A DNA stretch of 64,000 bases from Escherichia coli (GCF_003334405.1 NZ_QOWM01000004.1); one strand, 5' to 3'. Counted from the stretch's first letter, positions 9,097 through 12,160 are shown. Notes: generated by a model not told the origin, from the letters alone. Numbers and translations: made by a program.

Positions 9097-10308
9097 TTAT
9101 TTTTTCTCTGGCCACGCTATGGAAGGGATACCATTCAATTTAGCTTTAGCAAACAGATCTCCCTGAAACATCTCAATTCCTGCGGATTCAAGCCACATCC
9201 ACTCTTCTGGTGTTGCCACGCCCATAGCACTGACTTGAATTTCAAGTGATGTACAGCATTTTATGATCGCCTGAATAATTGCCTGCCGTGGCCCACTTTT
9301 ATGAACATTGGTAATCAATTCCTGACTGATTTTAATTCTGTCAGGCTGGAAGCGTGACAGGAGTAACAAACCAGCAAAACCTGCGCCAAAATGATCAATT
9401 GCTACACTGATACCAGCAGCCTTTAGCGATTTAATCGCTTCGGCAAACTCATCAAACCGAGATATGACTTCACTTTCAGTAAATTCAACGATGATTTGTT
9501 CAGGCACCAGAGCATTGGCCTTTATTTCATTAAGTAAAAAAGAGACTGCGTCAGGTTCGTTAACCAGGGTCATAGGTAATAGATTGATTGAAATCATTTT
9601 ATCACCGAGCTCAAGTGCGTGTGCCATCGTGAATGCAAGCGCCTTACTTTTGAGATCCGCTGTGTAGATTTCCCCGTCTTTACGCTGCCCAACCGCTATG
9701 GCTGATGGGCTATCTTCATTTTTTTGCACAATGGCTTCAAAAGCGATTATCCGCCGCGATAAGGGATCGACAATAGGATGAAAGGCAAAGTGGTCGTTTA
9801 TAGTTGGTGAAAGGGCACAGGAATCAAGTTCTTTATCAGATCCGTCAGCGATAAAAAGCCAGGAGTCTTCGGCAGGGATCTCGAAATAGGTTGATTGTTC
9901 GGTTGCAAGGACAAAAGTACGAAAAAATTGTAGCGCTCTGTCATCATAAGTTAGCTGAAATTTTGATGTGCCTTTGTCGAATACGGCCTGTAAAACGTCA
10001 TCTCGCTCGTGCAGGCGCAAATCAAATAATTCCATTCCCGCTTTGCCAAAACGGCGAGCAGGCGCGTAATCGCACAGCAGCTCAACAATATTATAGTGCC
10101 GTGGATCCTGGCATATAGCCCGATATATCATTTTAACCTGTTCTTCCGGACCTTCCAGAAGCTGGAAAAAATGAGAACCATTAAACAGTAAGATCCCTGT
10201 TACGTCAGACTGCATGTTCCTGCGATTTGCTATCGAAACCATTTCTTCGATTTTTTTGACAGGTTCGTCGTCACGTATATGGCTACGATAAATAAGGGTG
10301 GTAAGCAT
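9097..10308 (-). CDS. bluF: Blue-light sensing BLUF-EAL protein BluF (YcgF)
   Basis: ORF track 9097..10386; recognised start MLTTLIYRSHIRDDEP gives 403 aa; BLUF domain N-terminal, EAL-like domain C-terminal. Confidence 0.9.
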   Translation of the reverse strand: MLTTLIYRSHIRDDEPVKKIEEMVSIANRRNMQSDVTGILLFNGSHFFQLLEGPEEQVKMIYRAICQDPRHYNIVELLCDYAPARRFGKAGMELFDLRLHERDDVLQAVFDKGTSKFQLTYDDRALQFFRTFVLATEQSTYFEIPAEDSWLFIADGSDKELDSCALSPTINDHFAFHPIVDPLSRRIIAFEAIVQKNEDSPSAIAVGQRKDGEIYTADLKSKALAFTMAHALELGDKMISINLLPMTLVNEPDAVSFLLNEIKANALVPEQIIVEFTESEVISRFDEFAEAIKSLKAAGISVAIDHFGAGFAGLLLLSRFQPDRIKISQELITNVHKSGPRQAIIQAIIKCCTSLEIQVSAMGVATPEEWMWLESAGIEMFQGDLFAKAKLNGIPSIAWPEKK

Positions 10309-10539
10309 TAACAATCCAGGGTAATGGGTGAGGCGAGAGTAAGACGGTAACAGACATATCTTCTTGTGTCTTTCTTTTAATACCAAAACATAACCGTTTC
10401 TTTACATTGATAAAAAATGGAAAAAGTTGAACACTAGTTGGCGAAAAATCTTGTATAGATTGTCAGTTAAATGATGCAATATGTTTTATCATAACACATT
10501 GTTTTATATGCATTAGCACTAATTGCAAAAAATTAATTT

Positions 10540-10570
10540 ATCATTCTGTACACATATTTCGTACAATTTT
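10540..10570. promoter_or_regulatory. Candidate BluR operator / ycgZ promoter element
   Basis: TGTACA at 10547-10552 and GTACAAT at 10561-10567 in the bluF-ycgZ divergent intergenic region; same core motif as the palindrome upstream of bluR. Confidence 0.3.
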
Positions 10571-10621
10571 GCTATTGTTACTTCACTTAACATTGATTAA
10601 CATTTTTAACAGAGGCGTAGC

Positions 10622-10858
10622 ATGCATCAAAATTCAGTGACTTTAGATTCTGCGGGAGCAATCACTCGTTACTTTGCAAAAGCTAACTTGCATACTCAGC
10701 AGGAAACTCTCGGGGAAATTGTGACTGAGATTTTGAAAGATGGACGTAATCTGAGTCGAAAGTCGCTTTGTGCCAAACTTCTTTGCCGACTGGAACACGC
10801 GACTGGGGAAGAGGAACAGAAACATTATAATGCACTAATTGGGTTGCTTTTTGAATAA
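10622..10858 (+). CDS. ycgZ: Small regulatory protein YcgZ
   Basis: ORF track 78 aa; first gene of the ycgZ-ymgA-ariR-ymgC cluster. Confidence 0.85.
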   Translation: MHQNSVTLDSAGAITRYFAKANLHTQQETLGEIVTEILKDGRNLSRKSLCAKLLCRLEHATGEEEQKHYNALIGLLFE

Positions 10859-10900
10859 TGCAACAGCCTGATTATTTAACAGGTTAGCTATGAAGTCGTT

Positions 10901-11173
10901 ATGAAGACATCTGATAATGAACGTATAAAATATGAAATTACTGGCCAGGCGGTGCTCCAGATACTGCGCATGAAGATAAATTTTTCATTGCAGACTCTTA
11001 TTAAGCAATTACTCGTAATGAAATCGGCTGAGGAAGATGCTTTCCGACGCGATTTAATTGACAGCATAATTCGTGATTTTAGCAATAGTGATTCAGGAGG
11101 GCCAAACCGAAGAACAGCGACAGCTGACAATAAAAGTATGTTCAATGGTAAGAAAATAAACAGAATACATTAA
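10901..11173 (+). CDS. ymgA: Small protein YmgA (Rcs connector)
   Basis: ORF track 90 aa; expected size and order. Confidence 0.85.
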   Translation: MKTSDNERIKYEITGQAVLQILRMKINFSLQTLIKQLLVMKSAEEDAFRRDLIDSIIRDFSNSDSGGPNRRTATADNKSMFNGKKINRIH

Positions 11174-11201
11174 AATTTCATAAGTAAGATGAGAGGTTAC
11201 C

Positions 11202-11468
11202 ATGCTTGAAGATACTACAATTCATAATGCAATAACTGATAAAGCGTTAGCAAGTTACTTTCGCAGTTCGGGTAATTTGTTAGAAGAAGAATCAGCAGTG
11301 TTAGGGCAGGCTGTCACCAATTTAATGCTTTCAGGCGATAATGTTAATAATAAAAATATTATCTTAAGTCTGATACACTCCTTGGAAACAACAAGTGATA
11401 TTCTCAAAGCTGATGTGATTAGAAAAACACTGGAAATCGTGTTGCGATACACAGCTGATGATATGTAA
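11202..11468 (+). CDS. ariR: Biofilm/acid-resistance regulator AriR (YmgB)
   Basis: ORF track 88 aa; expected size and order. Confidence 0.85.
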
Positions 11469-11580
11469 CTTCTAATTATTAAGTATAAGTTTATAGAAAA
11501 CTCATTCATCTTATTTTTGTCTGTCGCTTTAGACTATACACAGCATAATTTTATTGGGTTAATATTTCTACGAGGCTGAC

Positions 11581-11829
11581 ATGAATAATTCAATCCCAGA
11601 GAGATTTATTTTTCAATGTGCTTTGTTTAAAAATCTCGAGAGGGAGGTGTTCATGACGCATGGGTATGTTGATAGTCATATTATTGATCAGGCTTTACGC
11701 TTGCGTTTAAAAGATGAAACCAGTGTGATTCTTTCTGATCTCTATCTGCAAATATTGCAGTACATTGAAATGCATAAGACTACACTAACGGATATCATTA
11801 TTAATGACAGGGAATCCGTGCTCTCTTAG
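11581..11829 (+). CDS. ymgC: Small protein YmgC
   Basis: ORF track 82 aa; expected size and order. Confidence 0.85.
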   Translation: MNNSIPERFIFQCALFKNLEREVFMTHGYVDSHIIDQALRLRLKDETSVILSDLYLQILQYIEMHKTTLTDIIINDRESVLS

Positions 11830-11923
11830 AACTTGAGTAAGGTTTTAGAATAAACATCAGCTGTATCACCATGCTGATGCAAAGTGAGCATTTCAGGCGT
11901 TATGCTTTCTTATTATGTCCGCA

Positions 11924-11977
11924 ATATCAGGTGTCAAGAATGGAGAGTTCTCGCTCTCCATTCTTGACGCCTGATAT
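11924..11977 (+). repeat. 24-bp near-perfect inverted repeat (6-nt loop); possible terminator of the ycgZ-ymgABC transcript
   Basis: ATATCAGGTGTCAAGAATGGAGAG-ttctcg-CTCTCCATTCTTGACGCCTGATAT; arms match at 23/24 positions (one G-U wobble in RNA); about 95 bp after the ymgC stop. Confidence 0.5.
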
Positions 11978-12160
11978 CCCGCCTAACTTATTTTGTACTG
12001 CCTACATTATGCTCAATAATTAATGGGTTAGATCAAGATGGAGAAAATTTTATCTTCGGCGTGGATATTTCTTATGCTCTCTACCATGCTCTCTGTAGAT
12101 GCCAGCGCGAGCGAATGAATGGCATTTTCATGTATTAAACCCTTTGGCCGGGACAAGCAA

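Follow-up and report, generated by a model that had tools for sequence, protein, structure and literature searches.

Background

Dar and Sorek described in 2018 a class of stem-loops without a U-tract in Rho-terminated transcripts, in which they immediately precede the steady-state 3′ end and protect the RNA against PNPase and RNase II. Their stems and loops are similar in length to those of intrinsic terminators, transcribed REP elements are included among them, and the sequence downstream of those that belong to Rho-dependent transcripts shows a mild bias of C over G (PMC6061677). Intrinsic terminators likewise close operons with a stable hairpin, which is followed immediately by a U-tract. 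The sib retroregulator of phage lambda, like other 3′-UTR hairpins processed by RNase III, is a long duplex located downstream of a coding region, and its cleavage controls the stability of the upstream message; in sib, an embedded terminator makes cleavage depend on read-through. At the DNA level, earlier work from the Lovett laboratory reportedly dealt with template-switch mutation at quasipalindromes in E. coli reporters. In a study from that laboratory, quasipalindromes are described as template-switch hotspots in E. coli: in thyA and lacZ laboratory reporters scored in culture, a mismatch in an imperfect inverted repeat is converted to perfect complementarity, either arm can serve as the source, and the events recur (PMC7202029).

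We analyzed a window of 64,000 nucleotides of Escherichia coli DNA (GCF_003334405.1, NZ_QOWM01000004.1) in which a long inverted repeat lies between ymgC and pdeG (ycgG). The operon upstream of the repeat, ycgZ-ymgABC, passes blue-light, cold and MarA signals to the Rcs system and to biofilm formation, and the product of pdeG is a c-di-GMP phosphodiesterase. Northern analysis has shown that ycgZ-ymgA-ariR(ymgB)-ymgC forms one polycistronic mRNA, and ymgC, ycgG (pdeG) and ymgF are additions in E. coli that are absent from other enterics (PMC3509220). The hairpin specified by the repeat is an obvious candidate for how the operon mRNA ends and for whether pdeG is coupled to it. The repeat is also a clean natural quasipalindrome: wild strains have repaired its one mismatch in both directions and on more than one occasion, which is what laboratory studies of template switching predict and what population data rarely show.

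Methods

Positions are those of the whole window, counted from its first letter. The window is K-12 sequence, and addition of 1,205,167 converts a window coordinate to the MG1655 coordinate, by which ymgC (11581-11829) corresponds to 1216748-1216996. RNA folding was performed using RNAfold. Copy number was determined using a non-palindromic query composed of the left flank and the left arm; a palindromic query returned two places per genome, most likely because it matched a single site on both strands.

Results and discussion

A 24-bp inverted repeat in the ymgC-pdeG spacer

The inverted-repeat search placed the left (5′) arm, ATATCAGGTGTCAAGAATGGAGAG, at 11924-11947, the loop TTCTCG at 11948-11953, and the right (3′) arm, CTCTCCATTCTTGACGCCTGATAT, at 11954-11977 of the + strand. 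The arms are 24 nt each and 96% complementary across the 6-nt spacer, and the single non-Watson-Crick opposition is T11932:G11969, which reads as G.U in + strand RNA and as A.C in − strand RNA. A previous reading of the window, made from the sequence alone (hereafter the sequence-only reading), had described a 24-bp near-perfect inverted repeat with one G-U wobble and a 6-nt loop. That description was confirmed at exactly these coordinates, and the approximate distances given with it were also correct (measured here as 94 nt from the ymgC stop and 183 nt to the pdeG start), as was the placing of a TTATTTT heptamer 10 nt past the stem, at 11988-11994.

When folded as RNA, a check that the same reading had proposed, the + strand gave a very stable hairpin of −44.5 kcal/mol (shuffle mean −16.0, z −8.92, with 0 of 200 shuffles as good). 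The − strand RNA folded at −45.3 kcal/mol (z −11.07), and the single-stranded DNA formed a hairpin of −25.8 kcal/mol (z −10.6), the behavior of a hairpin-forming quasipalindrome. The RNA fold closes the outer U and G of the loop as well, resulting in 25 pairs and a UCUC tetraloop, and the hairpin remains dominant when folded in a 366-nt context. No other inverted repeat of the 64-kb window whose arms lie within 60 nt of each other is as strong, as long or as clean; the runner-up has 19-nt arms with 79% complementarity. A search of the window for the arm pattern (24 nt, up to 3 mismatches) returned the two arms only, with 0 expected in shuffles, and by our own arithmetic 64 kb of random sequence would be expected to contain ~3e-7 short-loop inverted repeats of at least 23/24. 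The inverted repeat is real, and by E. coli standards it is unusually long and clean.

The repeat is unannotated in NC_000913.3 and in the PGAP records, and Rfam covariance models run over 10000-14000 left it unmatched at E ≤ 1. That run also returned a weak partial match to Pseudomonas CrcZ at 13719-13786 (− strand; 18.5 bits versus a gathering score of 95, E 0.05), which is almost certainly a chance match. In the literature, we found no paper analyzing the element beyond one figure mention in an AcnB-SELEX study, where a "3′ UTR of ymgC" fragment, putatively the hairpin, was recovered with binding that its authors deem rather unspecific (PMC10380284).

The repeat is single-copy and confined to one junction

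The element was found in 4,937 of 5,426 complete E. coli genomes at a median of one place per genome, and there it always sits between ymgC and pdeG. A search of 72,556 plasmids from all taxa matched E. coli records only, all of them typed non-mobilizable; some of these records are 4.8-4.9 Mb in size, and the matching records look like chromosome-derived sequence. A phage search returned no matches to the repeat. A metagenome-wide pattern scan yielded 81 E. coli-type hits, all carrying the ymgC 3′ flank and/or the pdeG upstream block, and the remaining 32 hits were unrelated short hairpins, as chance would give. Membership in a dispersed repeat family (REP/BIME, ERIC or MITE) was therefore rejected, given a single-copy element with no copy elsewhere in the window, in other replicons or in other species, and with no empty-site alleles. 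Such membership had been named in the sequence-only reading as a result that would speak against a local regulatory role; the search for it was negative and, the element being single-copy, a local role stays plausible.

The host gene is similarly restricted in its distribution. A protein search returned 161 YmgC homologues, all from Escherichia or without a source name, and two scans of a species-representative genome collection with YmgC peptides matched nothing. The ymgC gene appears to be essentially E. coli-only.

A candidate protective hairpin at the operon 3′ end

The hairpin lies in the 3′ UTR of ymgC (11581-11829, + strand), the last gene of ycgZ-ymgA-ariR-ymgC, and upstream of pdeG (12161-13684, + strand), which encodes a CSS-EAL phosphodiesterase. 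The terminator scan detected no terminator-like site from the ymgC stop to the repeat. Since the operon is polycistronic and no terminator precedes the repeat, operon transcripts must contain the hairpin, and a stable stem-loop of −44.5 kcal/mol stands at the end of the transcription unit.

It does not have the features of a canonical intrinsic terminator. As the sequence-only reading had correctly stated, no U-tract adjoins the stem: the 8 nt that follow it, CCCGCCUA, contain one U only, where a U-tract would begin within ~2 nt of the stem base. No A-tract lies upstream of the stem, the terminator consensus scan gave 0 sites here, and the 24-bp stem is several times the length usual in intrinsic terminators. 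In a study that ties polyadenylation by PAP I to Rho-independent terminators, the ymgC mRNA served as a non-polyadenylated negative control (Mohanty & Kushner, PMC1636475), as expected of a transcript without an intrinsic terminator. The "very stable terminator" that had been offered as one explanation of the repeat is thus not upheld in its canonical form.

The reading that we favor, albeit with some hesitation, has two layers: a hairpin that protects the 3′ end of the operon mRNA, and a quasipalindrome that is homogenized by template switching. At the RNA level, the repeat would be transcribed within the 3′ UTR of the ycgZ-ymgA-ariR-ymgC mRNA and fold into a hairpin of 24-25 bp, which alone would not release RNA polymerase because no U-tract follows it. 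Transcription would end further downstream, probably via Rho, for which the C-rich, G-poor 40 nt straight after the stem (11978-12017, + strand; 12 C versus 4 G, the first 8 nt being free of U-runs) are a candidate loading region. The 3′-to-5′ exonucleases PNPase and RNase II would then trim the transcript back to the hairpin, and the operon 3′ end would be set and stabilized there. Our analysis suggests that the hairpin probably caps the operon mRNA against degradation, rather than acting in classical termination.

The hairpin resembles the stem-loops of Dar and Sorek in being a stable 3′-UTR structure with no following U-tract, no preceding A-tract, and an excess of C over G downstream, the last of these being a mild and non-specific feature; stalling of PNPase and RNase II would be expected in both. 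It differs in that its stem is far longer and more perfect and, with respect to the REP elements, in that it is single-copy. Among the options put forward in the sequence-only reading, an RNA-stability element or a processed RNA structure would fit best, and the interpretation given there is, overall, partly supported.

One published Term-seq table lists no 3′ end at 1,217,0xx-1,217,2xx (PMC7815308), which counts against the protection model. The SMRT-Cappable-seq tables hold no entry for genes of the ymgC/pdeG locus, and our literature search found no published description of the operon mRNA end or of read-through into pdeG. Low expression of the operon is expected under the growth conditions of the Term-seq cultures. 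A second argument against protection is that a perfect 24-bp duplex should attract RNase III, by which the 3′ end would be destroyed rather than protected.

Alleles of the repeat

The K-12 type, with T:G at 11932:11969, is identical in 2,890 genome records. Two alleles are perfect palindromes (24/24), one with C at 11932, creating a C-G pair, in 70 records (O104:H21 among them) and one with A at 11969, creating a T-A pair, in 153 records (ATCC 8739 among them); they make up 223 of the 276 records in the 95-99% identity band. A type that we term C8 has three further changes (identity ~94%). The bulged type, ATATCAGGGGGCAAACAGGAATGGAGAG-CGCTCG-TTTTCCATTCTTGACGCCTGATAT, accounts together with close variants for ~1,650 records at 80-90% identity, and is found in O157:H7, ST131, other B2 strains and many more. 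The allele of strain MFDS1022581, which is ~10% different, combines a 4-nt insertion (ACAA) with the loop CTATTG and a perfect 10-bp apical stem.

The left arm is the more variable of the two among E. coli alleles, and its middle varies freely, while the right-arm stretch TCCATTCTTGA..CTGA.AT hardly changes. In older alleles, 11937 is followed by an additional ACAG or ACAA and both 11932 and 11934 are G, and the bulge region is prone to indels, with ACAG, ACAA, a 2-nt shorter form and a 4-nt deletion all seen. Because the most divergent allele shares the 4-nt insertion, we infer that bulged alleles predate the unbulged ones and that the 4-nt bulge disappeared in the K-12 lineage, a polarity that rests on this one ~10% divergent allele, with an outgroup from within E. 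coli.

On the + strand, the RNA of the K-12 allele folds at −44.5 kcal/mol and those of the other alleles fold at −19 to −30 kcal/mol. This difference of ~15 kcal/mol in strength between major E. coli lineages provides a ready-made natural series for testing. Every E. coli allele retains a hairpin in two parts: when nine different alleles were compared, 100% of cells were paired in the apical helix (10 bp) and 89% in the basal one (14 bp). None of the nine shows a double-sided compensatory change, and covariation was not significant versus shuffle controls; on these 9-allele statistics, structural selection from covariation is not claimed. Pairing of the + (sense) strand is never worse than that of the − strand in the imperfect alleles, whose departures from Watson-Crick pairing mostly read as G.U on the + strand; this G.U excess could equally stem from a C-to-T bias on the non-template strand. 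By our own count, variable positions number ~15 of 48 in the arms, 19 of 94 upstream and 25 of 61 downstream. The arms are about as variable as the flanks, and there is consequently no sequence-level sign of purifying selection.

Recurrent repair of the single mismatch

The evolution of the palindrome, to which the sequence-only reading was blind, proved to be the most informative result. Flanking haplotypes were compared in 11 complete genomes of the K-12 clade, which were sampled by allele and from which no rate can be estimated. The C-G allele occurs on the K-12 flanking haplotype (O104:H21, 504838, H1 and NT1N31) and on the O145 haplotype (deer strain 48), and the T-A allele occurs on the K-12 haplotype (ATCC 8739) and on a third haplotype (CLSC36, WB61 and MRY15-117). 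In a four-gamete test of 24 biallelic sites over ~500 bp, failures occurred only at 11932 and 11969, each of which is incompatible with 11913, 11987 and 11995. To produce this pattern, recombination would need conversion tracts of less than ~75 bp centered on the mismatch, twice per site, which makes recurrent mutation the simpler explanation. A metagenome allele on an ST131 background shows a further change of this kind, from an apical G.U to A-U. Replacing G.U by a Watson-Crick pair adds little to a hairpin of −44 kcal/mol, and the repairs are for that reason attributed mainly to mutation bias.

The pattern suggests quasipalindrome template-switch correction, the second layer of the reading that we favor. 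Template switching between the arms in replication would have repeatedly removed imperfections, which would explain why K-12 and its relatives have a near-perfect 24-bp palindrome and older lineages a bulged one. When clustered changes were compared, the 4-nt deletion and the G>T change at 11934 matched copying from the right arm, and the T at 11932 did not. Templating predicts C rather than T at 11932 in the K-12 lineage; hence, not all changes were templated. Vsr/Dcm very-short-patch repair was also considered as a cause of T:G repair, and was rejected on the grounds that no CCWGG context is present.

The locus shares with the thyA and lacZ hotspots (PMC7202029) an imperfect inverted repeat whose mismatch is converted to perfect complementarity, either arm as the source, and recurring events. 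It differs from those culture-scored reporters in that the variation is natural polymorphism and the mechanism is drawn from its pattern only, and in that the T at 11932 of the K-12 lineage runs contrary to right-arm templating. The locus could serve as a chromosomal, reporter-free site for measuring template-switch events.

One metagenome contig (L092, 1.3x coverage) has a K-12-type left arm, with the bulge deleted and T at both variable positions, joined to a loop, right arm and flanks on both sides that are of the bulged type. Either a micro-conversion tract shorter than ~30 bp or chimeric assembly at the palindrome would account for it.

Alternative readings

One alternative is that the repeat has no selected function. 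It would then be a mutational by-product, an old inverted duplication re-homogenized by template switching, whose effect on the mRNA is incidental. Arms that are no more conserved than the flanks, covariation that is not significant, and a bulge region prone to indels speak for this view, and the setting is itself an E. coli-specific addition of ymgC, pdeG and ymgF (PMC3509220). Furthermore, going from 23 pairs plus a G.U to 24 pairs adds almost nothing, so the recurrent repairs look like mutation bias. However, the hairpin has been kept in every lineage that has the ymgC-pdeG junction, including the ~10% divergent one, and its apical helix is paired in all alleles. Moreover, a 3′-UTR hairpin of such stability will physically block exonucleases, whether selected or not. 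We consider a purely mutational origin unlikely, while taking it seriously.

A processing or retroregulation site for RNase III is, in our judgment, rather improbable. The duplex would be cut on both strands, strongly with the perfect allele and weakly with the bulged allele, and cleavage would strip the ycgZ-ymgABC mRNA of its 3′ protection and sever read-through into pdeG. E. coli RNase III needs roughly two helical turns. The K-12 allele, with an uninterrupted duplex of 24-25 bp containing one G.U, is above the length of ~20 bp of near-continuous duplex that the enzyme calls for, and bulged alleles offer 13-14 bp of uninterrupted duplex only. The strength of the alleles differs by ~15 kcal/mol between lineages. 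Double cleavages in intramolecular stems do occur in vivo, but the enzyme is sequence-selective there and tells its substrates from random stems, by rules that ask for permissive pairs in the proximal, middle and distal boxes and for G-C between the cleavage sites (PMC6212723); in addition, no paper linking ymgC or pdeG to RNase III was found. The hairpin is like lambda sib in being a long duplex downstream of a coding region, where cutting by RNase III might control the stability of the upstream message, and unlike it in lacking an embedded terminator to tie cleavage to read-through.

An extension of this idea, which we regard as a long shot, is that the hairpin could be an allele-dependent RNase III switch between two biofilm modules. 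If so, ycgZ-ymgABC read-through would be cut, and thereby uncoupled from pdeG, in strains with the near-perfect allele (most of A/B1, including K-12), and would remain uncut in those with the bulged allele (B2, O157 and others). Template switching at a single quasipalindrome would in that event have rewired post-transcriptional control of biofilm genes within the species.

The repeat might instead act at the DNA level, as a promoter or protein-binding element to which RNA polymerase, H-NS or a dimeric regulator would bind, which seems to us very unlikely. The right arm would hold the −35 hexamer of a pdeG promoter, and TTGACA can be read on the opposite strand of the left arm. For ycgG/pdeG, the predicted sigma-70 promoter is TTGACG-19-TATTTT (11964-11994, + strand), with its −35 at 11964-11969 inside the right arm and its −10 at 11989-11994 within TTATTTT; a genomic SELEX table for RpoD holoenzyme places a constitutive promoter with these hexamers, flagged for H-NS, in the ymgC>ycgG spacer (Shimada et al. 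2014, PMC3946193). The resolution of the SELEX-chip does not place binding on the repeat, however, and the tabled hexamers are a prediction. TTGAC is conserved in most right-arm alleles, the exceptions being the C8 type (TTGATG) and the T-A allele (TTGACA), but the −10 reads TGTTTA in bulged alleles, a 19-nt spacer is poor for sigma-70, and our + strand promoter scan was empty here. At 24 nt, the arms are also much longer than the half-sites of known operators, and the left arm is free to vary in its middle part. The dimeric-regulator site proposed in the sequence-only reading thus finds no support beyond the in-vitro RNA polymerase SELEX peak in the spacer (PMC3946193). An antisense promoter reading out of the left arm (TTGACA-17-AATAAG) was rejected because its −10 is without the conserved final T.

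Scarcely any more credible is an intrinsic terminator of unusual length acting through the distal TTATTTT. In its favor are the high stability of the hairpin and the U-rich heptamer 10 nt downstream. Hairpin-driven release relies on a weak rU:dA hybrid, with which the one U in CCCGCCUA is incompatible. The heptamer is not conserved in other alleles, and the missing upstream A-tract, the negative terminator scan and the non-polyadenylated ymgC mRNA (PMC1636475) weigh against this form of terminator just as they do against the canonical one. Finally, a mobile-element remnant, either a minimal MITE or paired terminal inverted repeats, is close to refuted: CCGC stands one base outside each arm and several strains carry insertion sequences within or beside the repeat, but the CCGC flank is lost in the divergent allele, the element is single-copy across the 5,426 E. 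coli genomes, an empty-site allele was never seen, and the matches elsewhere consist of E. coli-only plasmid records, no phages, and 81 metagenome hits that are all at ymgC/pdeG.

Other features of the ymgC-pdeG region

A third copy of the outer-arm motif, ATTTCAGGCGT, lies at 11890-11900 and can pair with 11967-11977. It sits in a 34-nt block (11879-11912) that is invariant in the sampled E. coli alleles except that of MFDS1022581. A separate 7-bp hairpin, CATCAGC...GCTGATG (11857-11880), is located between the ymgC stop and the repeat. A 50-codon ORF across the repeat (11871-12023) was rejected as a gene, as a 4-nt indel breaks its frame in approximately one-third of E. coli.

Downstream of the hairpin, the most conserved block of the spacer contains an unannotated 26-codon ORF, MEKILSSAWIFLMLSTMLSVDASASE (12038-12118, + strand), whose TGA directly precedes a frame-shifted ATG at 12119, 42 nt before the annotated pdeG start. 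The ORF is intact with the same stop in most lineages and has two conservative changes in the ~10% divergent allele; B2-type strains have TTG as its start codon, and in a few strains (C8 and H1) it carries a frameshift. A search of NCBIfam gave no match to it, and it may serve pdeG as a leader peptide or uORF. In O157:H7 strain 2159 (~600-660 of locus L009, equivalent to window ~12085), a 48-nt insertion, CTATGAACCGCCCCGGGTTTCCTGGAGAGTGTTTTATCTGTGAACTCA, lies in frame within the ORF, and resembles a solo end of an IS3-family element (IS629-like).

Insertion sequences cluster at the hairpin. One strain (L015) carries IS1 right after TTATTTTG (window 11995), 18 nt beyond the stem, and two more strains (hits H41 and H60) have IS1 somewhere in the ymgC-pdeG spacer. 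In strain A29 (L004), IS3 lies at the apex of the left arm (11945-11947) and everything upstream is deleted. In B2-type strains (L003, L022 and L023; e.g. ST131), homology to K-12 stops just past the 26-codon ORF, at ~12120; pdeG is annotated there as a pseudogene missing its N-terminus, and the hairpin and the 26-codon ORF are kept.

One lineage labelled E. coli (GCA_017278115.1; L011/L012) has a YmgC that is 82% identical and is devoid of both the repeat and pdeG. Its homology ends ~60 nt past the ymgC stop, beyond which lie cytochrome b561-like and GAPDH-like genes, and the lineage is uninformative on the ancestral state. The divergent YmgC proteins of three other loci (L014-L016) belong to ordinary E. 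coli loci with frameshifts. Lastly, the Term-seq tables record antisense RNA 3′ ends in the 3′ part of pdeG, at MG1655 positions 1218619, 1218676 and 1218730 (PMC7815308), which correspond to ~13452, ~13509 and ~13563 on the − strand of the window.
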